Shown: positions 6,144 through 35,023 of the stretch, one piece after another
Numbering within the stretch: the first letter of the stretch is position 1
Layout: each line of letters begins with the position of its first letter
From: Candidatus Omnitrophota bacterium
GTDB lineage: Bacteria > Omnitrophota > Omnitrophia > Omnitrophales > Aquincolibacteriaceae
NCBI GenBank assembly: GCA_043732705.1
Contig: JAYTHE010000032.1
Coordinates: forward strand, 66,005 to 130,004
Direction of reading: 5' to 3'
DNA length: 64,000 nucleotides
Position numbers and translations under genes: made by a program
The notes under the pieces: generated by a model
The model's input: only the letters and a program-made list of their open reading frames with translations
What the model was told of the DNA's origin: nothing
Databases searched by the model: none

Positions 6144-6169
6144 TTTTGCTCTGGGCTGCGCCCAACCGC
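6144..6169 (+). repeat. intergenic motif family copy 1 (TTTGCTCTG-hairpin-CAACCGC)
   Basis: ttttgctctgGGGCtgcGCCCaaccgc between purF and purM. Confidence 0.6.
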
Positions 6170-6184
6170 TAAGAGGCAATAATA

Positions 6185-7216
6185 GTGACAAAAAAACCTC
6201 TGAAAAAATGGACCTACGAAGCCGCGGGTGTGCCGCATTTAAAAGGCGACCCAAAATATAACGGAGAAATCCGCAATTGGATCGGCTCAACCAAAATTCC
6301 CGGTGTGATGGGCAGTGCCACGGGCTTCGCGTCGATGTTTGATTTAAGTGCGCGGGGTATTAAAGATCCTGTTATGGTAACTTCGACGGATGGTGTGGGT
6401 ACCAAGTTGGAACTTGCGTCATTGCAAAAAAAGCATGATACGATCGGAATTGATTTGGTCGCGATGTGCGTGAACGATATTCTCGCGGTCGGTGCGGCGC
6501 CCGTTGTCTTTTTAGATTATTTTGCGACAGGAAAGTTTAATCCCAAAACGACGCGTGAAGTTTTAAGAGGTGTAGTCGAAGGCTGCCGCCAGGCCGGCTG
6601 CGCGCTTGTGGGCGGTGAAACCGCGATTATGCCCGGATTTTACCAAACATCAGGCGGACATTCACAATACGATGTGGCTGGTTTTTCAGTAGGGCTAGTT
6701 TCCAAAAGCCGGATTATCGACGGCAGTAAAATAAAAAAGGGCGATGTTGTTTTAGGTATCGCATCATCCGGCGTGCATTCAAACGGTTTTTCGCTTGTGC
6801 GGAAATTATTTTCAAAAAAGGAATTATCCGGGAAAATCGGGCAATCGCTTTTAACTCCGACGCGAATTTATGTGAAACCTGTTTTGCGTTTGATGCAGTC
6901 TGTTTCGCTCCTGGGAATCGCGAATATTACCGGAGGCGGCTTGGTTGATAATTTGCCGCGCATTTTGCCCAAAGGCCTTTCGGCCGCGATTGATGCGAAG
7001 AGTTGGACAGTACCTGATATTTTTAAAAAGATGCAAAGTGCGGGCGGTATCAATTCGCGTGAAATGTTCCGTACTTTTAATATGGGGATCGGTATGACGC
7101 TTGTCATGCGCCCTGATCATGCGGCGACAGCGCAAAAAATTTTAAAATCATTGGGTTTTGTGTCATGGAAAATCGGTCACATTGTTTCCGGTAAACAGCA
7201 AGTGGAGATTGCATGA
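6185..7216 (+). CDS. purM: phosphoribosylformylglycinamidine cyclo-ligase (AIR synthetase)
   Basis: PurM-like N- and C-terminal domains (DGVGTK...). Confidence 0.9.
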   Translation: MTKKPLKKWTYEAAGVPHLKGDPKYNGEIRNWIGSTKIPGVMGSATGFASMFDLSARGIKDPVMVTSTDGVGTKLELASLQKKHDTIGIDLVAMCVNDILAVGAAPVVFLDYFATGKFNPKTTREVLRGVVEGCRQAGCALVGGETAIMPGFYQTSGGHSQYDVAGFSVGLVSKSRIIDGSKIKKGDVVLGIASSGVHSNGFSLVRKLFSKKELSGKIGQSLLTPTRIYVKPVLRLMQSVSLLGIANITGGGLVDNLPRILPKGLSAAIDAKSWTVPDIFKKMQSAGGINSREMFRTFNMGIGMTLVMRPDHAATAQKILKSLGFVSWKIGHIVSGKQQVEIA

Positions 7217-8493
7217 AAGTCTTAGTGGTTGGTTCCGGCGCGCGCGAGCATGCGTTGATTTGGAAAATGAAGCAAAGTCCGATTGTTACCAAGATTTTTG
7301 CCGCGCCAGGGAATGCTGGCATCGCGGATATCGCGGAATGTGTTTCAATTAAAGTTGAAGACATTCAAGGTTTGCTTGATTTTGCTTTAACAGAAAAAAT
7401 CGGATTGACGGTAGTGGGTCCGGAAATTCCACTTGTACTCGGAATTCAAAATGCTTTTCACGAACGCGGGCTTAAAGTATTTGGACCTTCAAAAGAAGCC
7501 GCATATCTTGAAGGCAGTAAAGTTTTTTCCAAGCAAATGATGACAAAATATGGAATTCCTACCGCGGAATATGAAATCTTTTCCAACCCAAACGAAGCCA
7601 AGCATTATGTGATTGAAACTGAAATGCCGGTTGTGATTAAGGCCGATGGGCTCGCAGCGGGCAAAGGCGTTATTATTTGTGAAACAGCCGAACAGGCGGT
7701 TGCCGCAATCACGCAAATCATGGAACAAAAAATTTTCGGAGATTCCGGAAATAAGATTGTGATTGAGGAAAAATTAGAAGGCGAGGAGATTTCCGTTTTT
7801 GCTTTAACTGACGGAGAAATGGTTTTACCTTTAATCAGCGCGCGTGACCATAAGCGTGCTTATGATAATGATCAGGGGCCGAATACCGGCGGAATGGGCG
7901 CTTTTTCACCGAACCCCCAATTTTCAGATGCAGACACTCAGGAAATGGTTCGGGTCGCGATTGAACCGCTTGTGAAGGGCATGAAAAATGAAGGCAAGCC
8001 TTTTCGTGGTGTCGTATTCGCGGGGATCATGATGACGGCAAAAGGCCCGTATGTGCTTGAATACAACGCGCGTTTTGGTGACCCCGAAACCGAAGTCATT
8101 TTACCGCGTTTAAAATCCGATATAGTTCCGTTATTCCAGCAAATCAGCGAAGGCCGTTTAACGACACGGCAGCTTGATTGGGATATGCGTCCATGCATGA
8201 CCGTTGTGATGGTTTCAGGCGGTTATCCCGGTGGTTACGCCAAGGGCCATCCGATTCATGGACTTCAAGCCTCTGCGCAAAGAAAAGATGTTTGCGTGTT
8301 TCATGCTGGAACCGCTTTTAACGATTCGAAGCAAGTTGTAACGGCGGGTGGGCGTGTGCTGGCGGTAACGGCCTGGGGTGAAACTATGCGTGAGGCGTTT
8401 GACCGCGTTTACCAGGCAGTTTCCGACATTAAATTTAAAGATGCGTATTTCCGCCGCGACATAGGCAAGAAGACGTTGGAAGTACTGCGCTGA
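7213..8493 (+). CDS. purD: phosphoribosylamine-glycine ligase
   Basis: MKVLVVGSGAREHAL... ATP-grasp fold; ATGA overlap with purM. Confidence 0.9.
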   Translation: MKVLVVGSGAREHALIWKMKQSPIVTKIFAAPGNAGIADIAECVSIKVEDIQGLLDFALTEKIGLTVVGPEIPLVLGIQNAFHERGLKVFGPSKEAAYLEGSKVFSKQMMTKYGIPTAEYEIFSNPNEAKHYVIETEMPVVIKADGLAAGKGVIICETAEQAVAAITQIMEQKIFGDSGNKIVIEEKLEGEEISVFALTDGEMVLPLISARDHKRAYDNDQGPNTGGMGAFSPNPQFSDADTQEMVRVAIEPLVKGMKNEGKPFRGVVFAGIMMTAKGPYVLEYNARFGDPETEVILPRLKSDIVPLFQQISEGRLTTRQLDWDMRPCMTVVMVSGGYPGGYAKGHPIHGLQASAQRKDVCVFHAGTAFNDSKQVVTAGGRVLAVTAWGETMREAFDRVYQAVSDIKFKDAYFRRDIGKKTLEVLR

Positions 8494-8497
8494 TATA

Positions 8498-8525
8498 TTT
8501 TGCTCTGTGCCAATGGCACAACCGC
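8498..8525 (+). repeat. intergenic motif family copy 2
   Basis: tttgctctgTGCCAaTGGCAcaaccgc immediately after the purD stop. Confidence 0.6.
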
Positions 8526-8534
8526 ACAATTATG

Positions 8535-8559
8535 TTTAGCTCTGGCTTCGCTCAACCGC
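8535..8559 (+). repeat. intergenic motif family copy 3 (tandem with copy 2)
   Basis: tttagctctggcttcgctcaaccgc followed by gaagtc (alternative pairing). Confidence 0.45.
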
Positions 8560-8588
8560 GAAGTCTATAAAATAAGGAGAAGGTTAGT

Positions 8589-9089
8589 ATGTCAAAAGTT
8601 CAAGTATCAATTCTTATGGGCAGTGACTCGGATTGGGAAGTTATGAAAGAAGCCTATGATGCCATGAAGGAATTTGGCGTTGTAAGCGATATGAACGTGA
8701 TGTCAGCTCATCGCACGCCGCATGAAGTTGGGGAATTTGTCTCACGCGCGGTGAGTGACGGTAAGAAAGTGATTATCGCAGGCGCGGGCAGCGCGGCGCA
8801 TTTGGCGGGAGTTTGTGCGGCGCATACGACATTACCCGTTATCGGTGTTCCGCTCAATGCCACTTCATTGGGCGGATTTGACGCTTTGCTTGCTACAGTT
8901 CAAATGCCCGCAGGTATTCCTGTTGCGACTGTCGCGGTTGGGAAGTCGGGCGCGCGCAATGCAGGTATTTTGGCTGTGCAAATTTTGGCGACTTCGGACG
9001 CGGTATTGGCAAAAAAATTAACAGAATTTAAAAAGACCATGGCCGACAAAGTAAAAGAAAAAAATGCGCGCATGCAGAAGACGCTGTGA
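8589..9089 (+). CDS. purE: N5-carboxyaminoimidazole ribonucleotide mutase / AIR carboxylase
   Basis: ILMGSDSDW...GAGSAAHL PurE signature. Confidence 0.9.
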   Translation: MSKVQVSILMGSDSDWEVMKEAYDAMKEFGVVSDMNVMSAHRTPHEVGEFVSRAVSDGKKVIIAGAGSAAHLAGVCAAHTTLPVIGVPLNATSLGGFDALLATVQMPAGIPVATVAVGKSGARNAGILAVQILATSDAVLAKKLTEFKKTMADKVKEKNARMQKTL

Positions 9090-9091
9090 TA

Positions 9092-9117
9092 TTTTTTTCT
9101 CTGCGTAAACGCAACCG
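9092..9117 (+). repeat. intergenic motif family copy 4
   Basis: tttttttctctGCGTaaACGCaaccg after the purE stop. Confidence 0.55.
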
Positions 9118-9133
9118 AGAAACCTAATAAACT

Positions 9134-9595
9134 ATGACTGAAACAGCGACAGCAGTAAAAAAAGTTTTAGTGGTTTGCACGGGGAATACATGCCGTTCTC
9201 CGATGGCGGAAGCCCTGCTCCGTTTAGAATTTAAGAAAAAAGGTTATGGCTCGCGCGTGGAAGTTTCTTCCTGCGGAACAGGAACCCGTGACGGAATTCC
9301 AGCCGCTTCAGAAGGTGTTTTTGTGATGCGTAACCGTGAAATTGATATTAGTCCGCATCGCAGCCGTAAAATCAAACCGGAATTTTTAAAAGACGCGGCC
9401 TTAATTATTGCCATGAATCCGATGCATACGGAGGCATTACTTGCGACCAATCCGGAAGTGAAGCCTAAGCTGATGACGTTTCAAATTACGGATCCGGTCG
9501 GAATGAGTATTCGTGTTTATCAGGAGACGCTTGATTCAATTCAGGTTCAAATTACAAAAGAATGGCCGGAAATCTTAAAAAGGCTGGGATTGTAA
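9134..9595 (+). CDS. low-molecular-weight protein tyrosine phosphatase
   Basis: VLVVCTGNTCRSPMAE P-loop (CX5R) near the N-terminus. Confidence 0.8.
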   Translation: MTETATAVKKVLVVCTGNTCRSPMAEALLRLEFKKKGYGSRVEVSSCGTGTRDGIPAASEGVFVMRNREIDISPHRSRKIKPEFLKDAALIIAMNPMHTEALLATNPEVKPKLMTFQITDPVGMSIRVYQETLDSIQVQITKEWPEILKRLGL

Positions 9596-10056
9596 TGAAT
9601 ATTCAAAAAATTGCGTTAGCCTGTGATCACCGCGGCATTGCGATTAAAAATGAAATTATCGGTTATTTAAAGAAGCGCGGAATCGAAGCGCTTGATTTTG
9701 GGACCAATACGGAAGCTTCCTGCGATTATCCCGATTTTATTTTACCGGCCGCGGTTTCGCTCTCAAAAGGCGAATCGCAACGCGCGATCGGGATTTGCTA
9801 TACGGGTATCGGCAGTGTGATTGCTGCGAATAAGGTCAAAGGTGTGCGAGCGGCTTTGGTCGAAGATGTTCCTCGCGCCCGGTTGACGCGTCAGCATAAT
9901 GATTCCAATATGCTGATTCTTGCGTCAGGTTTTCATTCCAGTAACGAATTAATGCAAATTGTCGAAGCCTGGCTCGACACCGACTTCGAAGGAGGCCGTC
10001 ATGAGCACCGCGTTCGCAAAATCGAGTCCTATGAAAACAAACACATCGCTTCTTGA
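9595..10056 (+). CDS. rpiB: ribose-5-phosphate isomerase B (RpiB/LacAB family)
   Basis: [21 protein letters not shown]...; a good ATG at 9595 inside the longer track ORF. Confidence 0.8.
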
Positions 10057-11299
10057 GCAATTAAAAAAAGGCGACCCCGCGATTTATGAATGCGTGCGCA
10101 ATGAAATGCGTCGGCAAAATCAGGGGATTGAGCTGATCGCCAGCGAGAATTTCACCTCGCTTGCCGTGATGGAAGCGATGGGTTCGGTGCTGACCAATAA
10201 ATATGCCGAAGGTTATCCCGGAAAACGCTGGTATGGCGGCTGCGAATATGTCGATGTGGTTGAACAGCTAGCGATTGACCGGGCTAAAAAGCTTTTCGGC
10301 GCGGAGCATGCGAATGTTCAGCCGCATAGCGGTGCTTCCGCGAATACGGCGGTCTTTATGGCGGTTTTAAATCCCGGTGATAAAATTCTCGGGATGAATT
10401 TATCGCATGGCGGACATTTGACGCATGGGCATCCGATGAATTTTTCGGGTAAGTTCTATCAAATTATTCCTTATGGCGTGAGCAAAGAAACCGAAACGAT
10501 TAATTATGACGAACTCGACGCTTTAGCGCGCGAGCACAAGCCTAAACTCATTTTGATGGGCGCTTCGGCCTATTCACGGCAGATTGATTTTGCGCGTGCG
10601 AGAAAAATCGCAGATGAGGTTGGGGCGTTAGTGATGGTCGATATGGCGCATTTCGCGGGATTGGTCGCGGTTGGCGCGCATCCTAATCCGGTTCCGTATG
10701 CTGACATTGTGACAACGACAACGCATAAAACTTTGCGCGGACCGCGCGGCGGCTTAATTCTTTGCAAAGAAAAATATGCCAAGGCTATTGATTCAGCGGT
10801 GTTTCCCGGAGTCCAAGGCGGACCTTTGATGCATGTGATTGCGGGCAAAGCCGTTTGTTTTCATGAAGCACTGCAGCCTTCGTTTAAAGATTACGGATTG
10901 CAAGTTGTCAAAAATGCGAAAGCGCTTTGCGAAGCGATGAAAGCTAAAGGCTGGCGCATCGTATCCGGCGGAACGGACAATCATTTAATGCTTGTTGACG
11001 TAAAATCAAAAGGTTTTAACGGCAAGCAGGTCCAGGAAGCTTTGGACGTGGTGCATATCACGGCAAATAAAAATACGATTCCGTTTGATGCGGAGTCGCC
11101 GTTCAAAGGTTCGGGTATTCGTCTCGGAACACCCGCGGTAACAACGCGCGGTTTAAAAGAGCCCGAAATGAAACTGATCGCAGGCTGGATTGATGACACG
11201 ATGAAAAATCTTGATAACGAAAGCGAACTTTCCAAAATTCGCGCCCAGGTGTTGGATTTAATGGCAAAGTTTCCGCTTTATCCGGAGATTAACGGCTGA
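10031..11299 (+). CDS. glyA: serine hydroxymethyltransferase
   Basis: [11 protein letters not shown]...; PLP-lysine region [13 protein letters not shown]. Confidence 0.9.
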
Positions 11300-11760
11300 T
11301 GCTTTGCCCCTATTGTAAAGTTGATAACGATAAAGTTCTCGATTCACGCTCGGTCAGCGATGGGGTGGTGATTCGCCGCCGCCGCGAATGTATCGGCTGC
11401 GGCCGACGTTTTACGACTTATGAGCGGATCGAGGAAATGCCGCTTTTCGTGATTAAGAAGGACCAGCGGCGTGAACCTTATGACCGTATTAAAGCCTTGG
11501 CGGGCGTGTATAAAGCCTGCGAGAAAAGGCCTGTGCCGCTTTCGGTGCAAGATGAAGTAGCTGAAGAGCTTGAGAAAATGATCCGAGATAAGTATGACAA
11601 GGAAATTCCCGCGAAAATGATCGGAGAATTTATTATGCGCAAACTCGCAAAAATTGATCAAATTGCGTATGTCCGGTTTGCGAGCGTTTACCGTGAATTT
11701 CAAGACGTCAGTCATTTTATGGATGAACTCAAGGGACTTTTAGATAAGTCTAAAAAATAG
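11299..11760 (+). CDS. nrdR: transcriptional repressor NrdR
   Basis: MLCPYCK...CIGCGRRFTTYERIE zinc ribbon plus ATP-cone. Confidence 0.9.
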   Translation: MLCPYCKVDNDKVLDSRSVSDGVVIRRRRECIGCGRRFTTYERIEEMPLFVIKKDQRREPYDRIKALAGVYKACEKRPVPLSVQDEVAEELEKMIRDKYDKEIPAKMIGEFIMRKLAKIDQIAYVRFASVYREFQDVSHFMDELKGLLDKSKK

Positions 11761-11933
11761 TCCTTAATACTGTGCTTGAAGGGGGGTCGGCGTTATGGTA
11801 TAAAAATGCCGACTTGTAGAGGGTTGAATTGCGTTAAACTGTTTTTTTAATTAACTCGGTAACAGCGCTGAGTTTTGGAATTCAAATTATTTGAATCCTA
11901 ATGAAGCACTTGTAACCACAAAAGGAGAATATC

Positions 11934-12188: not shown

Positions 12189-12203
12189 TTTTTGATTCAA
12201 TCG

Positions 12204-12246
12204 GGCGGGAGTTAAACGCTCCCGCCCGTATCAATTTGTTTTTATT
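12204..12246 (+). terminator. rho-independent terminator
   Basis: gggcgggag-ttaaacg-ctcccgccc stem-loop followed by a T-rich tail. Confidence 0.6.
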
Positions 12247-13177: not shown

Positions 13178-13183
13178 CTCCTC

Positions 13184-14476: not shown

Positions 14477-14496
14477 GTCGAGCCATCCTGTTTCAT

Positions 14497-14525
14497 TTGA
14501 CAGGGTTAGGGGTGTTGCTTATACT
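14497..14525 (+). promoter_or_regulatory. sigma-70-type promoter TTGACA-17-TATACT upstream of mreB
   Basis: Exact -35 consensus, 17-nt spacer, near-consensus -10, ~40 nt before the mreB start. Confidence 0.55.
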
Positions 14526-19916: not shown

Positions 19917-19991
19917 TCGGGGTGTAGCTCAGCTTGGCTAGAGCGCTTGCTTTGGGAGCAAGATGTCGTAGGTTCAAATCCTGCCATCCCG
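19917..19991 (+). tRNA. tRNA-Pro (anticodon UGG)
   Basis: Cloverleaf CGGGGTG/CATCCCG acceptor, GCTC..GAGC D-arm, anticodon loop TTTGGGA, T-loop TTCAAAT; CCA not encoded. Confidence 0.9.
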
Positions 19992-20029
19992 ATACTAAAA
20001 GACCGAGATTCATTCTCGGTCTTTTAGTA
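19991..20029 (+). terminator. hairpin/terminator downstream of tRNA-Pro
   Basis: atactaaaagaccgag-attcatt-ctcggtcttttagtat, 16-bp stem. Confidence 0.5.
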
Positions 20030-20181
20030 TTTGAGCTCAGGATTTGAAGGGAGCTTCGCAATTTATAAAGCTGAACGGCTCAAAAAACTGACTTAATGTC
20101 AGATTTTTGAAAAGTGAAGACGGCGCGAAGCGGGAGGCGACTCAAAGCGAATGCCGCGGCTAGCGGACATAAGCGAAGAGC

Positions 20182-20201
20182 GTCAAATCCTGCCAACCCG
20201 A
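20182..20201 (+). repeat. partial direct duplicate of the tRNA-Pro 3' end (att-like)
   Basis: gtcaaatcctgccaacccga vs tRNA gttcaaatcctgccatcccga, 19/21 identical; an inverted T-loop fragment caggatttgaagg lies at 20037-20049. Confidence 0.5.
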
Positions 20202-20229
20202 TTTTTATGATCCTCAGGATCATAAAAAT
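20201..20229. repeat. 29-nt near-perfect palindrome
   Basis: atttttatgatcc-tca-ggatcataaaaat. Confidence 0.6.
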
Positions 20230-20241
20230 CTTCGATCAGTT

Positions 20242-20270
20242 ATATTTTGCTCTGGGCTTCGCCCAACCGC
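20242..20270 (+). repeat. intergenic motif family copy 5
   Basis: tattttgctctgGGGCttcGCCCaaccgc. Confidence 0.6.
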
Positions 20271-20603
20271 ATCTCGCGCCAATGGCGTAACCTGCGTGCT
20301 GCTGGTCAATCTTAATCATGCTTGATCAGGTGCATCCTACCACGAGCTTGCCTGGTCTGTGTCTTTGATCGAAATAAAATAAGAAGTTGCATTTTCTCCG
20401 GCATTTCGTTACATTTATTAGATGGGAAGCAGGAGCTTGTTGCCCTATTACTTGTTGTTAGCGACCTCGAACACCCCCATGGATGATGTTTCTGCTGAAG
20501 TTTTGCAGAAAATATCCGTAAATTAAAGGGTTGCTTTGGCTCCTTTTAATGAATTTATAAAAATATATGAAGCCGATTTTTACGGCAAAGGATTAGTATA
20601 AAA

Positions 20604-21779
20604 ATGGAACATAGCGGTTACGCAAAACGAAAACTGATTTGGCGCAATATTCTATTTTTTGTGTTCACTACCCTTGTTGCTTTGGTGGGTTGTCCTTTAT
20701 ACCTTCTGCATTATGGGATTTCTCCGTCTATTATTGGGTTGACCGCTTTTTTTATGGTGGCAACTGGCATGTCAATTACGGTGGGGTATCATCGCTTGTT
20801 TGCCCACGCGACCTTCAAAGCGCATCCCGTCGTTCGTTTTCTCCTTCTTTTTTTTGGTGCAGCGGCCTTTCAACAGGCAGCCTTAGAATGGTCTGCACAG
20901 CATCGTGATCATCACCGTTATGTTGATACAGATCGTGATCCTTACGATATTAAAAAGGGATTCTTTTACGCGCATATCGGCTGGCTTATTTTTTGGGAGC
21001 ATGTTGTAGATTTTGATAATGCGCATGACTTGGCCAAAGATCCCATGGTCGCACATCAAAATAAGCACTATTTTGCGTGGTGCATTGTTGCAGGGGTAAT
21101 TACGCCGGTGCTCATCGGCGCTCTTATGGGGCACGCTTTAGGAGCCTTTCTTTTTGCGGTTTGCCTGCGCATTACGCTTGTTTATCATTCCACCTTTTGC
21201 ATTAATTCGGTTTGCCATATGTTCGGCACCGCGACTTACGATCCTGATTCTTCCGCAAAAGATAATTGGCTTAGCGCGCTTGCGACAAACGGTGAAGGAT
21301 ATCATAATTTTCACCACCGCTTTCCGAGCGATTATCGTAATGGTGTGCGTTGGTATCATTTTGATCCGAGCAAGTGGTTGATCAAAGGCTTAGCAACGCT
21401 TGGCTTGACTTGGGACTTGAAGCAGGTTTCTGATTTTAGAATTCTTGCCGCGCGCCTTTACGGAGAAAATGTCCGCGTTACCAAAGCATTGGCGTTGTTG
21501 CAAAAACACGAAGCTGAAAAACTACAGGCTCAGTTGGTGTGGACGCAGCGTTATGAGGCCGTGAGACGCAACTTAACCGAATGGCAAACTCAGTTTGAGT
21601 CTTACCAGGCTTTAGCTCGTGAGCGGATGAGCGAGTCTTCACATGAATTGCGCGTCTCGGCTCGAAAAAACATGAAAGAAGCACGCCGGAAATTTAAAAC
21701 TACGCATATCCAGTGGAAGGAATTGACGCGGAAGCATCCCGTGCATCTTCAGGGTTTGTTGCTTGCGGGAATTGCATAA
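20604..21779 (+). CDS. acyl-CoA/acyl-lipid delta-9 fatty acid desaturase with ~110-aa C-terminal coiled-coil extension
   Basis: Histidine boxes HRLFAH, HRDHHRY, HNFHHRF; four TM segments. Confidence 0.85.
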   Translation: MEHSGYAKRKLIWRNILFFVFTTLVALVGCPLYLLHYGISPSIIGLTAFFMVATGMSITVGYHRLFAHATFKAHPVVRFLLLFFGAAAFQQAALEWSAQHRDHHRYVDTDRDPYDIKKGFFYAHIGWLIFWEHVVDFDNAHDLAKDPMVAHQNKHYFAWCIVAGVITPVLIGALMGHALGAFLFAVCLRITLVYHSTFCINSVCHMFGTATYDPDSSAKDNWLSALATNGEGYHNFHHRFPSDYRNGVRWYHFDPSKWLIKGLATLGLTWDLKQVSDFRILAARLYGENVRVTKALALLQKHEAEKLQAQLVWTQRYEAVRRNLTEWQTQFESYQALARERMSESSHELRVSARKNMKEARRKFKTTHIQWKELTRKHPVHLQGLLLAGIA

Positions 21780-25297: not shown

Positions 25298-28069
25298 ATG
25301 AAATCCAAGAAAAATATGAGCACAGCACAAGACAGCGAAAACGCCCTGACAGACTTACCTGCGGTGGGTAGCCCCACTTCATCTTCATTACCCAAAAATA
25401 TTACCGACGAAAATACGCAAGAATGGCAAAAGTGGCTTGATTCTCTGGAGCATATCCTCGAGGTGGCCCTGAAAGACCAGGCTGGTCCCGACCGTGCGCC
25501 TTTTATTATGGATACCCTGATCAAACGTCTCCGTAAATCCGGGATTCCGTTGCCGGCTCCTGTAAGCACGCCTTATATCAATACTATCCCGGCGACTGAA
25601 GAACCTGATTATCCCGGTGACCGTGAAATCGAACGCCGCATAAAAAGCTTAGTCCGTTGGAATGCCATGGCGATGGTGGTTAAGGCCAATGAAGTTCATC
25701 CGGGTTTGGGCGGACATATTTCAACCTTTGCTTCAAGCGCCACACTTTATGAAGTTGGGTTTAATCATTTCTTTCATGGCGGCGATAAAGAAGGGCGTCC
25801 CGCGGATTTCATTTATTTTCAGGGGCATGCATCGCCCGGTAATTATGCGCGCGCATATCTTGAACGCCGTTTGAACAAAGAACATCTGCATAATTTCCGA
25901 CAAGAACTTGCTCCAGGCGGAGGCCTTTCGTCTTATCCACATCCTTACTTGATGCCGAACTTCTGGCAATTTCCGACTGTGTCCATGGGCTTGGGACCGA
26001 TCATGTCGATTTATCAAGCTCGGTTTATGAATTATTTGAAAGCCCGCGGAATTTTTACCGGCGAAATGCCCAAGGTTTGGTCTTATGTCGGCGACGGCGA
26101 AACAGGCGAGCCCGAAACATTTGGTGCGCTTAATTTTGCGGGTCGCGACAAATTAGATAATTTAATTTGGGTTGTGAACTGTAATCTTCAGCGTTTGGAT
26201 GGTCCCGTTCACGGCAACGGAAAAATTATTCAGGAATTCGAATCAGTTTTCCGCGGCGCGGGCTGGAATGTGATCAAAGTGATTTGGGGTTCGGAGTGGG
26301 ATGAACTCATGAAGAAAGACAGCAAGGGCTTGCTTCTGAAACGTATGAGCGAATGCTGCGACGGAGATTATCAAAAATATTCTGTTGAGCCGGGAAGTTA
26401 TACCCGTAAACATTTCTTCGGCAAATATCCCGAGCTGCTTGCGATGGTGAATCATATGACCGATGCGCAAATTACAAAGTTATTGCGCGGAGGACATGAC
26501 CCTAAGAAAGTTTATGCCGCTTACAAAGCCGCGGTTGAGCATAAAGGCCAGCCGACTGTGATTCTCGCTAAAACTATCAAAGGTTACGGTTTAGGTGAAG
26601 CCGGTGAAGGCCGCAATATTACGCATCAACAGAAGAAGTTGAATGAAAAAGAATTACGCGAATTCCGCCAGCGCTTTGATATTCCTATCGGCGATGAAGA
26701 AATTGTTACGACCCCGTTTTACCGTCCGCCTGTGGATAGTCCGGAAATGAAATATCTTTTTGAGCGCCGTAAAGCTCTCGGCGGCTTTGTTCCTGAGCGT
26801 AAGGTTAAAGCAGCCTTGTTGCAAACTCCGGGATTCGATTATTACGATGAGTTTACAAAAGGTTCGGGTGAAGCCGAAGTTTCGACGACGATGGCTTTCG
26901 TGCGTATTCTGACCAAGCTTTTACGCGAACCCAATATCGGAAAAAATATCGTTCCGATTATTCCGGATGAAGCGCGTACTTTCGGTATGGACGCGCTTTT
27001 TCGCCAGGTTGGAATTTACGCTCCGCAAGGTCAGCTTTATGAACCTGTCGACATCGAGTCTTTGCTTTACTTTAAAGAAGCCAAAGACGGTCAGATTCTT
27101 GAAGAAGGAATTAATGAGGCCGGTTCAATGTGCTCATTTATTTCAGCGGGAACGGCGCATGCTACGGTCGGTACTTATATGATTCCGTTCTACATTTACT
27201 ATTCGATGTTCGGATTCCAGCGTGTGGGTGATTTGATTTGGCTTGCCGGTGATATCCGCGCCAAAGGATTTATGCTTGGCGGAACTTCCGGCCGCACGAC
27301 ATTAAACGGCGAAGGATTACAGCATCAAGACGGACATAGCCAATTGATGGCAAGCACGGTTCCGAGTCTTGTGGCCTATGATCCTGCATTTGCTTATGAG
27401 CTCGCTGTGATTATTGAAGACGGTATTGAGCGCATGTATAAAAAAGGCGAAGAGCTTTTTTACTATTTGAGCGTCTATAACGAAAATCATGTGATGCCCG
27501 CGATGCCTGCAGGAAGCCGTGAGGGTATTCTCAAGGGGCTTTATAAATTCAAGGCCAGCGATAAGAAGCTTAAATTGCGCGCCCAGCTTTTAGGAAGCGG
27601 TCCGATTATTCAATCCGCGCTTAAAGCCCAACAGATGCTTGAAAAGTATGGCGTTGCCGCGGATGTTTGGTCAGTAACCAGCTATAATCAGCTGCGCCGC
27701 GAAGCGCTTGAAGTTCAGCGCGCAAACCGCCTCAATCCAACAGCTAAACCGAATAAGTCTTATGTTGAGCAGTCCTTTGACAAGCAAGAGGGTGTTTTTG
27801 TGGCGGTTTCGGATAACATGAAAATTGTAGCCGAGCAAATCACGCCTTGGGTGCCGGGTAAATTTACGGTACTCGGAACGGATGGGTTTGGACGCAGTGA
27901 TACTCGTGCACAATTGCGCCGTTTTTTTGAAATCGATGCTGAGAGTGTTGTGATTGCGACTTTATATGCTTTGATGGAAAAAGGTGAAGTCGATGCGAAA
28001 GTTGTTAAACAAGCGATGCAAGATTTGAATTATTCTGCCGATAAAACCTATCCTCATATAGTCATATGA
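25298..28069 (+). CDS. aceE: pyruvate dehydrogenase E1 component (homodimeric type)
   Basis: TPP-binding and transketolase-like domains; the N-terminus resembles E. coli AceE once the start is set at MKSKKNM. Confidence 0.85.
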   Translation: MKSKKNMSTAQDSENALTDLPAVGSPTSSSLPKNITDENTQEWQKWLDSLEHILEVALKDQAGPDRAPFIMDTLIKRLRKSGIPLPAPVSTPYINTIPATEEPDYPGDREIERRIKSLVRWNAMAMVVKANEVHPGLGGHISTFASSATLYEVGFNHFFHGGDKEGRPADFIYFQGHASPGNYARAYLERRLNKEHLHNFRQELAPGGGLSSYPHPYLMPNFWQFPTVSMGLGPIMSIYQARFMNYLKARGIFTGEMPKVWSYVGDGETGEPETFGALNFAGRDKLDNLIWVVNCNLQRLDGPVHGNGKIIQEFESVFRGAGWNVIKVIWGSEWDELMKKDSKGLLLKRMSECCDGDYQKYSVEPGSYTRKHFFGKYPELLAMVNHMTDAQITKLLRGGHDPKKVYAAYKAAVEHKGQPTVILAKTIKGYGLGEAGEGRNITHQQKKLNEKELREFRQRFDIPIGDEEIVTTPFYRPPVDSPEMKYLFERRKALGGFVPERKVKAALLQTPGFDYYDEFTKGSGEAEVSTTMAFVRILTKLLREPNIGKNIVPIIPDEARTFGMDALFRQVGIYAPQGQLYEPVDIESLLYFKEAKDGQILEEGINEAGSMCSFISAGTAHATVGTYMIPFYIYYSMFGFQRVGDLIWLAGDIRAKGFMLGGTSGRTTLNGEGLQHQDGHSQLMASTVPSLVAYDPAFAYELAVIIEDGIERMYKKGEELFYYLSVYNENHVMPAMPAGSREGILKGLYKFKASDKKLKLRAQLLGSGPIIQSALKAQQMLEKYGVAADVWSVTSYNQLRREALEVQRANRLNPTAKPNKSYVEQSFDKQEGVFVAVSDNMKIVAEQITPWVPGKFTVLGTDGFGRSDTRAQLRRFFEIDAESVVIATLYALMEKGEVDAKVVKQAMQDLNYSADKTYPHIVI

Positions 28070-28083
28070 GGATAGGTTTTTTT
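28047..28083 (+). terminator. rho-independent terminator overlapping the 3' end of aceE
   Basis: cctatcctcatat-agtc-atatgaggatagg (13-bp perfect stem) followed by T7. Confidence 0.65.
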
Positions 28084-28088
28084 AATTA

Positions 28089-28116
28089 TTAAGCTCTGAG
28101 CCTTTGGCTCAACCGC
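28089..28116 (+). repeat. intergenic motif family copy 6
   Basis: ttaagctctgaGCCtttGGCtcaaccgc between aceE and aceF. Confidence 0.6.
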
Positions 28117-28133
28117 AATACATTAGCTAGGAG

Positions 28134-29501
28134 TTGAAGATGGAAGTTCGTTTACCGCAGCTTGGGGAAGGTGCCGATACAGGTACTGTCGTAAATATTT
28201 TGGTTAAAGTCGGTGATACCGTCAAAAAGAATCAAACTTTAATTGAGCTTGAAAGCGGTAAAGCTGTCGCGCCGATCCCTTCAACCGGCGACGGAACGGT
28301 TCAAACTTTGAATGTTAAACAAGGTGATAAAGTTTCTGTCGGCCAATTAATCGCTACGTTGTCGGGTTCAGGCACGATTTCTTCTGGCTCTGCGCCTGCG
28401 GCGCAACCGCAAACACCGGTTCAGCAGCCAATTCAGCAAAACACCTTTAATGCCGCGCCTTCACAGGTTCTGCCTGCTGCAGGTGCCTATCAATATCAGT
28501 CGCAAAGTGGTTTTCCGCCTGCGGCTGCGCCTTCGGTTCGTGCAATTGCGCGAGATCTTGGGATTGATTTAGGACGAGTCCGCGGAACGGAAAACGGCGG
28601 ACGTATTGGTTTAGCTGATTTGCGTAATTACTTTATGCAGATTCAGGCGATGGCATTCGCTGGATCAGGTTCTGCGGCTGCTAGTACTTCTGCCTCCGCG
28701 ACGCAGTCGCAACCGGCGGCTGCAATTGATTTTTCGCAATGGGGAACCGTAACCAAGAAACCGCTTTCGGGTTTACGCCGTGCAATCGCGAAGCAAATGA
28801 GCAGTTCATGGAATACCATTCCGCATGTCACTCAATTTGATGATGCGGATGTAACCGTAATCAGCCAGCTGCGCAAAAAATATGCGGCTGAATATGAAAA
28901 GAAAGGCGCGAACTTAACTTTGACTGCCATTATTTTGAAAGCAGTTACAGTTGCGCTCAAAAAACATCCTGTATTGAACTCAAGTATCGATCTTGAGAAA
29001 GATGAGCTGATTTTAAAAGAGTATATTCATCTGGGTGTTGCGGTGGATACAGACCAAGGGTTAATTGTGCCTGTGATTCGCAATGCTGATAAAAAATCAA
29101 TTTTTGAATTAGCTCAGGAACTCGGACAGCTTGCTGAAAAGACACGCGCCCGCAAAATTTCCGGTGAAGAACTTAAAGGCGGAACTTTTACGATTTCGAA
29201 TTTGGGCGGAATTGGCGGCGGACATTTTACGCCGATTGTGAATAAGCCTGAAGTCGCGATTCTTGGAATCGGCCGCGGAGTTCCCAAGACAGTCGTACGG
29301 GACGGAAAAATTGAAATTCGCACACTGATGCCTGTTTGCGTATCATATGATCACCGTGTGGTTGATGGGGCTGATGGAGCAAGATTTACACGCGCATTTG
29401 TCGAAGCATTGGAAAAAATTACTGATGCTGACATCAAATTAAGCTCTACAACAAAGGCTCAACCGGCTGCTAAAAAACCGGTCAAGAAGGGGAAGAAATA
29501 A
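28134..29501 (+). CDS. aceF: dihydrolipoamide acetyltransferase E2
   Basis: Single lipoyl domain (ELESGKAVA), Ala/Pro linker, E3-binding domain, catalytic DHRVVDGA. Confidence 0.85.
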   Translation: MKMEVRLPQLGEGADTGTVVNILVKVGDTVKKNQTLIELESGKAVAPIPSTGDGTVQTLNVKQGDKVSVGQLIATLSGSGTISSGSAPAAQPQTPVQQPIQQNTFNAAPSQVLPAAGAYQYQSQSGFPPAAAPSVRAIARDLGIDLGRVRGTENGGRIGLADLRNYFMQIQAMAFAGSGSAAASTSASATQSQPAAAIDFSQWGTVTKKPLSGLRRAIAKQMSSSWNTIPHVTQFDDADVTVISQLRKKYAAEYEKKGANLTLTAIILKAVTVALKKHPVLNSSIDLEKDELILKEYIHLGVAVDTDQGLIVPVIRNADKKSIFELAQELGQLAEKTRARKISGEELKGGTFTISNLGGIGGGHFTPIVNKPEVAILGIGRGVPKTVVRDGKIEIRTLMPVCVSYDHRVVDGADGARFTRAFVEALEKITDADIKLSSTTKAQPAAKKPVKKGKK

Positions 29502-29502
29502 A

Positions 29503-30930: not shown

Positions 30931-30974
30931 CCAATAATAGTTTTGAATCGGTAGTATAATATCTCAGGTAAAAA

Positions 30975-31448
30975 ATGCGCCCCATACAAGAACTTGTAAA
31001 AAATATTAAAATCGGTCAAATCGTTAATCCACGGTTGATCCAAGCCCCGCCTGAAATTACTGTTCGCACTGCGGTTGAGATCATGCAAAACAACAAATCA
31101 GGCTATATTGTAATTGCTGATCACCAAAGAAAAGTGGTCGGAATTTTTACCGAAACTGATGTGCTGCAAAAAGTTTTTGGAAAAAAAGATGCATGGGAAA
31201 AGCCCGTGTCACAGTATATGACTCAAAATCCCAAAGTTCTCAGCGTGCGTGATACGGTCGGCCAGGCGATTGAGCTCATGGGTAAAAATCACTTTTACCA
31301 TATTCCGCTTGTGGACGAAAAGGCGGCACTTGTGAATGTTATTTCGGTGCGGACACTGATTCGATTTTTGGCGGAGTTTTACCCGACGGAAATTTATAAT
31401 TTGCCGCCCCGATATAATCAGATTATGGAAACCGCAGAGGGCGGGTAA
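30975..31448 (+). CDS. CBS-domain pair protein
   Basis: Two CBS motifs, ~157 aa. Confidence 0.7.
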   Translation: MRPIQELVKNIKIGQIVNPRLIQAPPEITVRTAVEIMQNNKSGYIVIADHQRKVVGIFTETDVLQKVFGKKDAWEKPVSQYMTQNPKVLSVRDTVGQAIELMGKNHFYHIPLVDEKAALVNVISVRTLIRFLAEFYPTEIYNLPPRYNQIMETAEGG

Positions 31449-31460
31449 AGCGATTTTTTT

Positions 31461-31500
31461 GTTTGCTGAGCAAGCCTCAGCAAACACTTTTAGAATTTAT
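31461..31500 (+). terminator. hairpin (possible terminator/attenuator) in the kor leader
   Basis: gtttgctgag-caagc-ctcagcaaac 10-bp stem; more hairpins follow before korA. Confidence 0.45.
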
Positions 31501-31572
31501 TTTACGTTTGCGATCCTCGATAAAACTCGGATCGCAGTTGCGCGAAGCGCAGAGCAAATAGGAAATAATAGA

Positions 31573-33438
31573 ATGGATACTGAAAAAGAAACGAAGCATG
31601 TGCAGAAGCAGGAGCCTCAGGAGCTTTCCGCGATTACAGTGAGATTTGCAGGCGATTCCGGCGACGGAATGCAGCTGACAGGTGATCAATTTACTGACAC
31701 GACGGCGATGATGGGCAATGACTTTGCAACGTTTCCGGATTATCCGGCTGAAATTCGCGCTCCGGTTGGTACGCTTCCCGGAGTGAGCAGTTTTCAAATT
31801 CAATTTTCTAAATCCATTATTTTTACTCCGGGCGACATGTCGGATGTTTTGGTCGCGATGAATCCTGCCGCGCTCAAAGTTAACCTTTCCAATATTAAGA
31901 AAAATGGTTTGATCATTGTTAACTCGGACGCGTTCAATGAAATCAATTTGCGGAAATCTGCCTGGAAAGTGAATCCGCTTTTAGATGAAACGCTTAAAGA
32001 TTTTCAAGTTATCAAGGTTCCGCTTTCAGAACTGACAAAAAACGCGCTTAAAGAACATCCGTTGAAGCTGACAGAAGTTGACCGCTGCAAAAACTTTTTC
32101 GCGTTGGGAATGATGTTTTGGCTTTATGACCGGGTTTTAGATCACACCGTTGATTGGATTACAAAAAAGTTTGTAAAAAAACCCGAGATGGTAAATGCCA
32201 ATGTGGCCGCACTTAAAGCCGGGTACAATTTTGCTGATATCACCGAAACTTTGCCGACTCAATACCGGATTCCTAAAACAAAAATGGAGCCGGGCACTTA
32301 CCGTAAAATTTCAGGCAATGAAGCAACCGCGATTGGGTTGATTACTGCCGCGCAGCTTGCGGGCAAGACTCTTTTTTATGGTTCCTATCCCATTACGCCT
32401 GCAAGCAATATTTTGCATGATTTGGCACGCTACAAAAATTTTGGCGTGCGGACTTTCCAGGCTGAAGATGAGATCGCCGCGATGGGAACAACCATTGGCG
32501 CGGCCTTCGGCGGTGCGATCGGCGTTACGGGCACCAGCGGCCCGGGAATTTGTTTAAAGTCCGAAGCACTTGGTTTGGCTGTTATGGCCGAACTTCCCGT
32601 GGTTGTGATTGATGTGCAGCGTGGCGGGCCAAGTACCGGTATGCCCACAAAAACCGAACAAACAGATTTGTTGCAGGTGATGTTTGGCCGCAACGGAGAA
32701 TCTCCTGTAGCGGTTGTTGCACCCAAGACGCCTTCGGATTGCTTTGCGATGGCGTTAGAAGCTGTGCGCTTGGCTTTGACGCATATGACACCGGTTATCT
32801 TTTTGTCGGAAGGTTATTTGGCGAATGCGGCGGAACCCTGGAAACTTCCTAAAATCGAAGATCTGCCAAAAATCGAAATTAAGCATCCTGTTGCTGAAGA
32901 GGGTAAACCTTTTTATCCGTATGCGCGCGATGAAAAGACATTGGCCCGTCCCTGGGCGCTTCCGGGAACGCCAGGGCTTGAGCATCGCATCGGAGGGCTT
33001 TCGAAAGCTGATTTAACCGGGAACGTAAGCTATGACCCTGAAAATAATCAAAAGATGATTAATTATCGTGCTGAAAAAGTGGCGCGCATCGCGAATGATA
33101 TTCCTGAAATTGAAGTCCGCGGCGAGCAGAAAGGGAAATTGTTGATTTTGGGATGGGGTGGAACCTTTGGCGCGATTTTCCAGGGAATGGAAGAGCTTGC
33201 AGGTCAGGGTATTCATGTTTCGCATGCTCATTTAAATTATCTCAATCCGTTTCCAAGAAATTTAGGCAAGGTGCTTTCTAGCTTTGAGAAAATTTTAATT
33301 CCCGAATTGAATATGGGGCAGCTTTTAATGTTAATTCGAAATGGCTTTCCCGGAGTGAACGCGGTGGGTCTGAATAAAGTCAAAGGTTTGCCGTTTCATG
33401 GTGCCGAAATCGCCGAGCGAGTGAAGGAGCTTTTATGA
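31573..33438 (+). CDS. korA: 2-oxoacid:ferredoxin oxidoreductase alpha(/gamma) subunit
   Basis: POR N-terminal and domain III regions; RBS-supported ATG at 31573 inside the longer track ORF. Confidence 0.85.
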   Translation: MDTEKETKHVQKQEPQELSAITVRFAGDSGDGMQLTGDQFTDTTAMMGNDFATFPDYPAEIRAPVGTLPGVSSFQIQFSKSIIFTPGDMSDVLVAMNPAALKVNLSNIKKNGLIIVNSDAFNEINLRKSAWKVNPLLDETLKDFQVIKVPLSELTKNALKEHPLKLTEVDRCKNFFALGMMFWLYDRVLDHTVDWITKKFVKKPEMVNANVAALKAGYNFADITETLPTQYRIPKTKMEPGTYRKISGNEATAIGLITAAQLAGKTLFYGSYPITPASNILHDLARYKNFGVRTFQAEDEIAAMGTTIGAAFGGAIGVTGTSGPGICLKSEALGLAVMAELPVVVIDVQRGGPSTGMPTKTEQTDLLQVMFGRNGESPVAVVAPKTPSDCFAMALEAVRLALTHMTPVIFLSEGYLANAAEPWKLPKIEDLPKIEIKHPVAEEGKPFYPYARDEKTLARPWALPGTPGLEHRIGGLSKADLTGNVSYDPENNQKMINYRAEKVARIANDIPEIEVRGEQKGKLLILGWGGTFGAIFQGMEELAGQGIHVSHAHLNYLNPFPRNLGKVLSSFEKILIPELNMGQLLMLIRNGFPGVNAVGLNKVKGLPFHGAEIAERVKELL

Positions 33439-34472
33439 GTCCCGAAACATTAACACCGGCACCGGTGCCGTATCAAAAAGCGGACTTCGAATCCAATCAA
33501 GAAGTCCGTTGGTGTCCCGGTTGTGGCGACTATTCGATTCTTGCGACAATGCAGAGAACTTTAACCAAGTTCAATCGCCCGAAACACGAATATGCTTTTA
33601 TTTCTGGCATTGGCTGTTCAAGTCGCTTTCCTTATTACATGAATACGTATGGATTTCATACGATTCATGGGCGCGCGCCCACAATTGCGTCCGGCTTGCG
33701 CTGCGTGAATCCGAATCTTTCGATTTGGGTCATTACCGGCGACGGTGATGGCCTCAGTATTGGAGGCAATCATTTAATTCATTGTATGCGCCGCAATATC
33801 AATCTGAATATCTTGCTTGTGAATAATGAGATCTATGGTTTGACCAAAGGTCAATATTCACCGACTTCGCGTGTCGGAACAGTGACCAAGTCAACGCCGA
33901 TGGGATCGATTGATTATCCGTTGAACGCGCTTTGTGTTGCGATCGCTTCGGAAGCGACTTTTATCGCGCGCACTTTAGATTCGGATCCGAATCACATGAG
34001 CATGATTATGGAACGCGCTGAAAAACACAAAGGTGTTTCGTTTGTGGAGATTTTACAGAACTGTGTTATTTTTAATGATAAGGTTCACGCGCCGGTAGTG
34101 GCCCGCGAAAACCGCGAAGACCGCATGATTTACCTTGAGCATGGCAAGCCGCTTCTGTTCGGAAAAAATAAAGCGAAGGCGATTCGGCTGAGCGGGCTGC
34201 GCGCAGAGATCGCCGATGCAAACGATGCGGATGCTAAAGAGCATTTACTAATTCATAACGAGAAAGATGCGACCCCGAATTACGCGTACTTGCTGACGCA
34301 GATGACTTATCCGGAAATGCCGGTGCCTTTCGGTGTTTTTCGCGATATTGACCGTCCTACTTATGATGAACTGATGCTCGGCCAGGAAAAGGCGGCATTA
34401 GAAGCGCGCGGCAAAGGCGATTTAAAAAAATTGATTTACGGTTCGAATACTTGGGAGGTAAAACCTACATGA
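33435..34472 (+). CDS. korB: 2-oxoacid:ferredoxin oxidoreductase beta subunit (TPP-binding)
   Basis: CPGCGD...GDGD TPP motif; ATGA overlap with korA. Confidence 0.9.
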   Translation: MSPETLTPAPVPYQKADFESNQEVRWCPGCGDYSILATMQRTLTKFNRPKHEYAFISGIGCSSRFPYYMNTYGFHTIHGRAPTIASGLRCVNPNLSIWVITGDGDGLSIGGNHLIHCMRRNINLNILLVNNEIYGLTKGQYSPTSRVGTVTKSTPMGSIDYPLNALCVAIASEATFIARTLDSDPNHMSMIMERAEKHKGVSFVEILQNCVIFNDKVHAPVVARENREDRMIYLEHGKPLLFGKNKAKAIRLSGLRAEIADANDADAKEHLLIHNEKDATPNYAYLLTQMTYPEMPVPFGVFRDIDRPTYDELMLGQEKAALEARGKGDLKKLIYGSNTWEVKPT

Positions 34473-34984
34473 TTCTTCATCGTAAACCCGGCGATTCTCA
34501 CGAAAATTCAGTGAAGCATGTTTTTCATCCGGGTGACAAAGTTCCCATGAGCGCGGGCGCTCAGCGGAGTCCGTCTGACGAATACCAAAATATTATGATG
34601 GAAAAGCCGGTTTCTGAACTTCTTAGTAAGAAAAGTTTTTTGTATGTTCTGCCCTCTGACTCGGTTGAAAAAATCGTTCATATTTTGCAAAAAGAAAAGC
34701 AAAGCGCCGTTCTCATTATTCAGCATGAACGTCTCATGGGGATTGTCAGTAAACGTGATCTTTTGCGAAGAACCGCGGGAAATGAAACCAAGCTTTCGAG
34801 TATGAAAGCTTTGGACGTGATGACCGCCAACCCTGAGATTGTAAAAGCAGCTGACCCGCTTTCTTTCGCGGTTAATAAAATGGCCATGGGCGGCTTTAGG
34901 CATTTACCGGTTTTATCTGAAGAAGGGGATCCGATCGGGATTATCTCGATTCAGGATGTATTGAGTTTTTTAGCTCAGCTTTAA
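34469..34984 (+). CDS. CBS-domain pair protein
   Basis: Start overlaps the korB stop with a strong RBS (gggagg); two CBS motifs. Confidence 0.7.
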   Translation: MILHRKPGDSHENSVKHVFHPGDKVPMSAGAQRSPSDEYQNIMMEKPVSELLSKKSFLYVLPSDSVEKIVHILQKEKQSAVLIIQHERLMGIVSKRDLLRRTAGNETKLSSMKALDVMTANPEIVKAADPLSFAVNKMAMGGFRHLPVLSEEGDPIGIISIQDVLSFLAQL

Positions 34985-34992
34985 CAGTTTCT

Positions 34993-35023
34993 TTTTTGCC
35001 TCTGTGCTTTGGGCACAACCGGC
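34993..35023 (+). repeat. intergenic motif family copy 7
   Basis: ttttttgcctctGTGCtttggGCACaaccggc. Confidence 0.55.

Follow-up and report, generated by a model that had tools for sequence, protein, structure and literature searches.

The 64-kb stretch analysed here (hereafter the window), which derives from contig JAYTHE010000032.1 of a Candidatus Omnitrophota bacterium, carries housekeeping genes in its first 35.8 kb, among them purF, purM, purD, purE, a low-molecular-weight phosphatase gene, a tRNA-Pro gene, the pyruvate dehydrogenase genes aceE and aceF, a CBS gene and a POR gene, whereas the part from 35.8 to 64 kb is rich in two-component regulators and glycosyltransferases. A motif consisting of a 5' box CTCTG, a short hairpin and a 3' box CAACCG recurs predominantly in the spacers of the housekeeping part. 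We consider it probable that this motif represents a family of small (approximately 40-48 nt), imperfect-palindrome repeats of the repetitive extragenic palindromic (REP) type.

The pattern CTCTG-N6-16-CAACCG was found eight times in the window, every time on the + strand; in 100 dinucleotide-preserving shuffles, the pattern appeared 0.15 times on average and once at most. A covariance model (R1), which was built from 11 copies (alignment A1) and with which the window was scanned with filters off, returned nine matches at E <= 0.002, the next-best match having E = 1.3. This model, the building of which had been proposed in the first-pass annotation, recovered the window copies and added one on the minus strand (31529-31568). 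All seven copies reported previously are present, but they have to be complemented by an eighth + copy inside aceF (28388-28409) and by the minus-strand copy, so that the assignment of all copies to the + strand holds for the eight pattern matches only. Similarly, the supposedly constant 5' box TTKCTCTG fits four of the seven reported copies, with CTCTG as its invariant part, and the spacing of 15-60 nt to the next start codon does not apply to the copies at 20250 (next gene at 20604) and 35000 (next gene on the opposite strand).

The anatomy of the element was deduced from copies pooled from the window, its relatives and metagenome contigs; L-numbers are used as labels of the loci compared with the window. 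Conservation extends from approximately 12 nt 5' of CTCTG through approximately 7 nt 3' of CAACC, and the extent described in the first-pass annotation is too short, since an outer helix (P1) adds to the element. Read from 5' to 3', the fold comprises a U-rich arm, G, C, the bases UC, UG-N-GC, a loop, GC-N'-CA, the bases ACC, G, C and a purine-rich arm. In P1, the U-rich 5' arm is faced by an A/G-rich 3' arm. Between P1 and the inner helix (P2), an invariant C=G pair is followed by a 2x3 internal loop (5' UC / 3' ACC). P2 is composed of U-A, G-C, N-N', G-C and C-G pairs, at times with one extra pair (5-6 bp), and is closed by a loop of mostly 3-5 nt. Because P1 encloses them, the two boxes form an internal loop and are not free flanks. 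The head reads GCUC (approximately 70%) or CCUC, and the tail reads ACC.

Both helices show compensatory changes. The base 5' of CTCTG and the second base 3' of CAACC form a G-C pair in 48, a C-G pair in 13, a U-A pair in 2 and a G.U or U.G pair in 6 of 75 copies, the remaining 6 being unpaired, and the next P1 pair outward covaries as well (U-A 23, U.G 14, G-C 11, C-G 3). Among 67 distinct copies, 78% of the cells are paired compared to 71% in shuffles, and the covariation score of 0.241 compared to 0.119 in shuffles was reached by none of 500 shuffles; with the partners slid, the score was 0.07-0.09. The N/N' pair of these copies is AU in 20, CG in 18, GC in 11, UA in 5 and UG or GU in 5 cases, and the closing pair occurs as GC (53) or CG (8). 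The main compensating position of the stem is thus a single pair (N/N' in UG-N-GC...GC-N'-CA), although the optional fourth or fifth pair varies too, and in one copy adjacent to a tRNA-Lys gene the usually constant U-A pair is changed to C-G. The two-helix structure is kept by compensatory change. Selection on structure, as proposed in the first-pass annotation, is supported by a covariation far above the shuffle and slide controls; its description of self-complementary variable stems has to be restricted, since the inner stem of the copy at 8540 is imperfect and mainly one pair varies. The additional copies found with R1 lean towards a paired P2, because the model encodes P2. When single copies were folded as RNA, most of those in the window adopted P1, P2 and the 2x3 loop between them, with predicted energies of -9 to -12 kcal/mol. 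The P1 helices of the Omnitrophota set often contain U.G but seldom A.C pairs; therefore the helix is better on the motif strand, an asymmetry which is partly mere arm composition.

Three variants were observed in which one of the boxes is sequestered. In L005 (9903-9954), a 10-bp stem GCGGTTGCGT/ACGCAACCGC takes in the 3' box, the variant of L196 (5921-5961) is a perfect palindrome GCCTCTGAGTTGCAACTCAGAGGC, and in L140 (6489-6560) the 3' box is part of a downstream terminator stem.

Table 1. Copies of the element in the window, with matches to covariance model R1 (P1, outer helix; P2, inner helix)
Copy	Extent	Core	Strand	P2 stem	Score (bits)	Fold z	Context and remarks
1	6135..6174	6149-6168	+	UGGGC/GCCCA	44.5		purF-purM spacer; CTCTG 16 nt after TGA stop; P1 3' arm contains purM Shine-Dalgarno AAGAGG; orthologous copy in L003
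2	8489..8530	8503-8524	+	UGUGCC/GGCACA	42.7		begins right after purD stop; TGA 9 nt 5' of CTCTG
3	8526..8564	8540-8558	+		24.2		upstream of purE; head-to-tail tandem with copy 2; inner stem imperfect; predicted fold an alternative hairpin
4	9085..9123	9099-9117	+	UGCG(U)/(A)CGCA	38.3	-3.8	between purE and low-molecular-weight phosphatase gene; loop-closing pair U-A, not G-C
5	20236..20275	20250-20269	+	UGGGC/GCCCA	44.1		3' of duplicated tRNA-Pro 3' end (20180-20202) and terminator-like hairpin; next + strand gene starts at 20604
6	28080..28121	28094-28115	+	UGAGCC/GGCUCA	39.4		flanked by strong aceE terminator (28043-28080) and aceF ribosome-binding site; site orthologous in L192, L194, L196 and L200, where stems differ yet pair
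7	28374..28415	28388-28409	+	UGCGCC/GGCGCA	39.4		in frame in Ala/Pro-rich aceF linker, encoding GSAPAAQPQ
8	31529..31568	about 31535-31554	-		32.5 (E = 2.5e-5)		reads CTCTGCGCTTCGCGCAACTG; 3' box CAACTG; outside model training set; between CBS gene and POR gene, antisense to neighbours; orthologous antisense copy in L192; T-rich arm abuts POR gene start, arm complement supplies Shine-Dalgarno AGGAAA
9	34986..35027	35000-35021	+	UGUGC/GCACA	36.1	-3.1	starts 15 nt 3' of CBS-domain gene stop; CCUCUG...CAACCGG subtype; closing pair swapped to C-G; nearest following gene (35798-36637) on opposite strand

Strand bias and intergenic preference, for which the first-pass annotation had asked, were both observed. 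In loci with a GC content of 50% or less, 55 of the 75 copies were called intergenic and 20, including miscalls, inside open reading frames (ORFs), although the loci are mostly coding; genes of the metagenome loci were called simply as the longest ORFs. The 52 intergenic copies with a called upstream gene are oriented sense to this gene in 44 and antisense in 8 cases. In 29 of these 44 sense cases, CTCTG follows the end of the stop codon after 4-16 nt; a typical sequence reads CTG TAA TAT TTT TG CTCTG, and therefore P1 starts 2-3 nt past the stop. The distance to the next gene ranges from 10 to more than 100 nt. Many copies are situated between cistrons of core operons, i.e., tuf-secE-nusG-rplKA, rpsLG-fusA, S10/spc and rpsO-pnp, and the rpoBC operon contains copies as well. 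Furthermore, six copies start at or a few nt from tRNA 3' ends in the orientation of the tRNA (Trp, Lys, Ser twice, Arg), and one more is located approximately 60 nt past a tRNA-Gly gene, beyond a terminator hairpin.

In case of the convergent gene pairs of L176 and L151, each gene is associated with one sense copy, and in L141 and L143 the copy orientation switches within a few hundred bases along with genes and tRNAs. Copy orientation follows the local gene and not the replicon, and a replication-strand cause was rejected since the orientation flips within loci. The placement of antisense copies is not random either: the T-rich arm lies directly at the start codon of the opposite-strand gene, and the complement of this arm supplies the Shine-Dalgarno sequence (window 31529, L140 7965, L141 3817, L136 3484, L184 95). 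Inverted pairs are few and occur between convergent genes or as one sense plus one antisense copy (L176, L151, L200); genes between inverted copies are housekeeping genes.

When the window spacers of 40 nt or more are counted, 7 of 18 contain a copy in the housekeeping part (1-35.8 kb), compared to none of 13 from 35.8 to 64 kb (hypergeometric p = 0.012). Several further observations were made next to the copies. The tRNA-Pro gene (19917-19993) has its own 3' end repeated approximately 190 nt later (20180-20202, GTCAAATCCTGCCAACCCGAT), which resembles a trace left by integration at this tRNA. The intrinsic terminator at 28043-28080 (17-bp stem and T-run), directly 5' of the copy in the aceE-aceF spacer, is internal to the expected pyruvate dehydrogenase operon. 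At 35064-35100, the sequence GTGCCCGTAGCTCAGTTGGATAGAGCAACAGATTTCTAAT resembles the 5' half of a tRNA gene and was called neither by ARAGORN nor by Rfam. It stands between the element-rich housekeeping segment and an element-free segment of lower GC content (36-64 kb), which is packed with response regulators, histidine kinases, GT4 glycosyltransferases and ferritin-like genes, and may mark an island boundary.

The PurD protein of the window is 92% identical to that of the 'Candidatus Omnitrophota' metagenome-assembled genome (MAG) GFS_12873 and 84-85% identical to those of three other uncultured bacteria. The element is present in the closest relatives, with four copies in 12.7 kb of the nearest one, and relatives and metagenome contigs together contributed approximately 90 more copies. 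A metagenome contig scan with a 20-base pattern, in which TTTTG, the boxes and the GC pairs were fixed and N-N' and P1 were left free, resulted in 50 loci, mostly of 42-49% GC, and the model found 70 copies in 263 kb of such motif-selected loci. No copy was detected in 36 kb of more distant Omnitrophota lineages (AceF 57-59% identical) or in approximately 110 kb of unrelated bacterial loci. Members of the family are thus located mostly after genes and tRNAs, in one lineage of the Omnitrophota. A literature search by element sequence and on Omnitrophota repeats gave nothing relevant.

Copies behave like insertions, and local duplication was observed in addition. The purM-purD junction of L005 contains an insert of approximately 98 nt with the element and a new ribosome-binding site, whereas stop and start codons overlap at this junction in L004, a close relative of L005, and in the window. 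Presence and absence vary among lineages at the purF-purM, purD-purE and purE-phosphatase junctions. In the CBS-POR spacer, an antisense copy occurs in the window and L192, and sense variants occur in L194 and L196; the aceE-aceF spacer of L200 contains copies in both orientations, one each. Element sequence also contributes codons to the C-terminal tail of AceF, antisense in L192 (AAVGSKTQSKKK) and sense in L194 and L196. Tandem copies are found in the window (8503/8540), L002 and L142.

Two of these tandem arrangements deserve a closer look. In L002, two copies enclose a second, diverged version of purE codons 1-12 (1492-1535; MLKVKVSLFMLG vs MSKVLVSILMGS), which implies a tandem duplication of element, ribosome-binding site and gene start. 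L142 contains at 1787-1876 a perfect 2.7-copy tandem array of a 33-nt motif-containing unit on a metagenome contig of 59% GC.

After their acquisition, copies keep boxes and pairing over long evolutionary distances. The orthologous stems of the aceE-aceF spacer are all paired, namely AGCC/GGCU in the window and L192, CGGC/GCCG in L194 and CGGU/ACCG in L196, with a decayed 3' box in the latter two. Likewise, the copies after rplA and rplK of three related contigs differ in their stems, each of which is paired. The copy in the aceF linker occurs in five lineages (AceF 73-100% identical), in which the linker is otherwise scrambled, and is conserved at the nucleotide level: pairwise identity at third codon positions amounts to 54/60 for the motif codons compared to 314/570 for the invariant residues of the lipoyl domain, where the pairs are not independent and a nominal p value thus overstates the case. 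An uncompensated A.C mismatch due to a synonymous change is present in two lineages, and in L200 two amino-acid changes result in one mismatched pair in the 3' stem. The residues SAPAAQPQ are common to the homologues, but an explanation of this copy as a chance or codon artefact is ruled out by the synonymous-site conservation.

The core of the element is shared by a few uncultured phage contigs. A core-pattern scan of IMG/VR resulted in several contigs with two or three copies each (L071, L049, L050, L089, L186, L082), and comparison with PHROGs identified genuine phage genes (baseplate, portal, head, endolysin) on the IMG/VR contigs. The phage copies contain the full core (G/C)C-UC-UGNGC..GCN'CA-ACC-GC, preceded by a constant TCG and followed by a constant GCTC; a GC-rich variant of the element reads TCGCTCTG..CAACCGCTC. 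Their P1 covaries (CTCAT/ATGAG, CTCAC/GTGAG, GCGTC/GACGC, GCTGC/GCAGC, GCCGC/GCGGC), with 78 of 110 positions paired compared to 55.6 +/- 4.1 in shuffles, and wobble counts favour neither strand. This family is small, with 20 stretches in the entire collection, on contigs of 39-65% GC (L186, L082, L071 and others). Among GenBank phages, neither a copy of the element nor a close relative of the phage contigs was found, the best cultured relative being a Rhizobium phage with 34% identity. GC skew in the phage contigs was uninformative. In L089 (2232-4262), a 677-aa ParB-like phage ORF contains two antisense GC-rich copies (3417-3434, 4134-4151) past the recognisable ParB domain, as would result from in-frame insertion or from a fusion of several genes into this ORF.

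A number of known signals were compared with the element and rejected. For a sigma-70 promoter, the -10 region is unconserved and the scan gave no match on the elements. As intrinsic terminator, the element has its T-run on the wrong side, and the terminator scan called no copy, yet called true terminators nearby (28043-28080). By inspection, sigma-54 promoters, extracytoplasmic function (ECF) sigma factor promoters and the PurR box differ in order or spacing, and the palindrome is variable. The Nus-factor boxA and lambda nut (GCUCUUUAACAA-like single-stranded box, one per leader) have only the hexamer (U)GCUCU in common with the element, in which this hexamer is partly base-paired and which, unlike boxA/nut, occurs several times per operon. 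A selenocysteine insertion sequence (SECIS) was discarded, since TAA is among the stop codons in question and the following gene possesses a start of its own. CAACCGC is complementary to GCGGUUG of the E. coli-type 16S rRNA 3' region; as the box is situated 5' of the Shine-Dalgarno sequence and helix 45 already engages that part of the rRNA in pairing, the complementarity was regarded as coincidental, and a likeness to the 16S sequence GCUCAACC is superficial. A scan of the window at Rfam 15 gathering thresholds gave tRNA-Pro only, and permissive Rfam 15 scans (E up to 10) of 6050-9250 and of the three-copy phage locus gave no match on the elements.

Among the options named in the first-pass annotation, a REP-like repeat fits best. 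According to the survey of Di Nocera et al. (PMC3733652), REPs are palindromes that bear an unpaired 4-nt head (GTAG or CGTC, or the variants TGTC and CCTC) and the 3-nt tail CCA; members of one family differ in stem and loop, and the PVC superphylum is among the groups that contain REP families. Published REPs are found no more than 20 bp from where the upstream ORF ends, at a distance to the downstream ORF that varies, their termini can supply stop codons, and in-frame intragenic copies exist (PMC3733652). The genomic behaviour of the element matches these families. Like the GTAG and CGTC REPs and the REPIN/RAYT systems (PMC3733652, PMC3116915), it combines an imperfect palindrome of variable stem and loop with unpaired bases at head (CUC) and tail (ACC), it is mostly intergenic near the 3' end of the upstream ORF and between unidirectional or convergent genes, its terminus can supply a stop codon, in-frame intragenic copies occur, and it is plausibly transcribed. 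In about two thirds of the sense copies the hairpin starts a few nt past the stop codon, which may be likened to the REPs acting as mRNA elements in E. coli. Some Rickettsia palindromic elements (RPE) are classed as CGTC REPs (PMC3733652). With these the element shares the in-frame insertion at tolerant protein sites in either orientation (here the aceF linker and the C-terminal tail), but it differs from the classical RPE-1 of 100-150 bp by its length of approximately 45 nt and by its mostly intergenic copies. The picture drawn in the first-pass annotation is supported overall; what it missed are the outer helix, the antisense and in-ORF copies, the insertional behaviour and the tRNA-adjacent copies.

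Several observations weigh against the assignment to the REP type. The head (G/C)CUC fits neither GTAG nor CGTC, CCTC being listed merely as a CGTC variant (PMC3733652), the tail is ACC and not CCA, and the stem comprises 5-6 bp compared to 8-9 bp in REPs. The outer helix, by which head and tail become an internal loop, the marked sense bias and the copies abutting tRNAs are likewise unlike REP. Inverted dimers (REPIN/BIME), which are typical of most REP families, are rare, and copies are mostly single or in direct tandem. A tblastn search of 1.76 Mb for a Y1/HUH transposase was negative, albeit as a weak test with one IS200 TnpA query, and no RAYT gene was identified; the CGTC REPs likewise are without a dedicated transposase (PMC3733652). 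Copy numbers refer to genome fragments (nine copies in the window). The phage copies are mostly antisense to genes, with their T-rich side adjoining the start codon, and therefore an RNA-level role is not general. Finally, the synonymous-site conservation of the in-ORF copy of aceF exceeds what would be predicted for a purely selfish insert. Taken as a whole, the element is a new REP-like family with unusual features and not a new kind of element.

As a REP-type repeat, the element would be copied into spacers and transcribed within operon mRNAs and tRNA precursors. By analogy to the E. coli REP, the RNA hairpin may block 3'->5' exonucleases and thereby stabilise or punctuate the upstream segment. 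Since P1 lies in the region covered by a ribosome at termination, this process or re-initiation may likewise be modulated by the element; Liang, Rudd and Deutscher reportedly observed in 2015 that an E. coli REP within about 15 nt of the stop codon lowers upstream translation. The invariant head and tail might serve as recognition determinants for a protein that copies or binds the element, in the manner of the GTAG/CGTC tags and CCA tails of known REPs.

A different explanation assumes a host cis-acting RNA punctuation hairpin that evolves in place and is not a mobile repeat, with its invariant loop bound or cut by a host factor. We regard it as unlikely, despite the fact that sense bias, sites after stop codons and right after tRNA genes without encoded CCA, invariant boxes with covarying helices, the nucleotide-level conservation of the aceF in-ORF copy, the excess of U.G over A.C pairs on the motif strand in the Omnitrophota set and the occurrence in highly expressed operons, with 0 of 13 spacers in the regulatory half of the window, are in good agreement with it. 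Intact antisense copies (approximately 15% in Omnitrophota and the majority in phage contigs), a protein tail partly encoded by antisense copies, a spacer independently occupied in both orientations and perfect tandem arrays speak against it; all of these are predicted by insertion and not by in-place selection. In one version of this explanation, P2 and the unpaired A-C-C would mimic a tRNA acceptor stem (U1-A72, A73, C74, C75), and RNase P cleavage 5' of UG would separate cistrons and tRNA trailers. RNase P substrates usually have U at position -1, whereas this position is C in the element, and a P2 of 5-6 bp with a small loop would be a poor substrate. A bolder proposal, to which we assign a low probability, takes the module of the C=G pair, the 2x3 UC/ACC loop and the U-A/G-C foot as an undescribed RNA recognition or catalytic motif, e.g., an RNase P-cut mimic of the tRNA acceptor, which Omnitrophota and some uncultured phages (39-65% GC) would use as general transcript punctuation after cistrons and tRNAs.

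Alternatively, the element might act solely as DNA, i.e., as a hairpin extruded from single-stranded DNA that serves a recombinase or HUH enzyme as recognition site, as do attC sites and IS200/IS605 ends, with no role of the RNA and with an orientation that reflects the strand which is single-stranded in replication or transcription. As in integron attC sites, structure is conserved over sequence, short constant boxes lie at the foot, and copies occur between co-directional genes in one orientation; moreover, the + strand of the window is G-rich (leading) throughout, and in phage contigs the orientation is not tied to transcription and wobble counts favour no strand. Replication direction, however, cannot explain an orientation that flips with the local gene or tRNA within a few kb (L141, L143, L176, L151). 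Unlike attC, the element lacks paired RYYYAAC/GTTRRRY boxes, CUCUG and CAACCG not being complementary to each other, neither integrase nor transposase was seen at the loci examined, and the neighbours are not cassettes but housekeeping operons (pur, pyruvate dehydrogenase, ribosomal-protein and tRNA genes). This explanation is judged very unlikely. An ordinary expression signal of the flanking genes, either intrinsic terminator or promoter, might be suspected where copies are found between a terminator and a ribosome-binding site (28094, L050, L157), and TTGCTC plus 17 nt gives a sigma-70-like spacing in the commonest length class. We consider this hardly credible, given that the T-run lies 5' and not 3' of the hairpin, that no element was called as terminator or same-strand promoter, that the would-be -10 positions carry only 0.1-0.2 bits, that copies occur between cistrons of ribosomal-protein operons and that a promoter does not need compensatory stem changes.

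Interpreted as REP-type repeats, these copies constitute the first interspersed repeat family described for the candidate phylum Omnitrophota, with a consensus that is ready for covariance models. Knowledge of the family aids the annotation of MAGs where spacers, falsely extended ORFs or insertions in protein linkers and tails are concerned, and the element can also be used as strain-typing marker. That the core recurs in phage contigs of widely differing base composition hints at a conserved recognition protein. With its other head and tail, outer helix, single sense units at stop codons and tRNA 3' ends, and long-lasting conservation even at synonymous sites within a gene, the family stretches the REP concept and bears on the question whether REP-type repeats are selfish, domesticated, or both.

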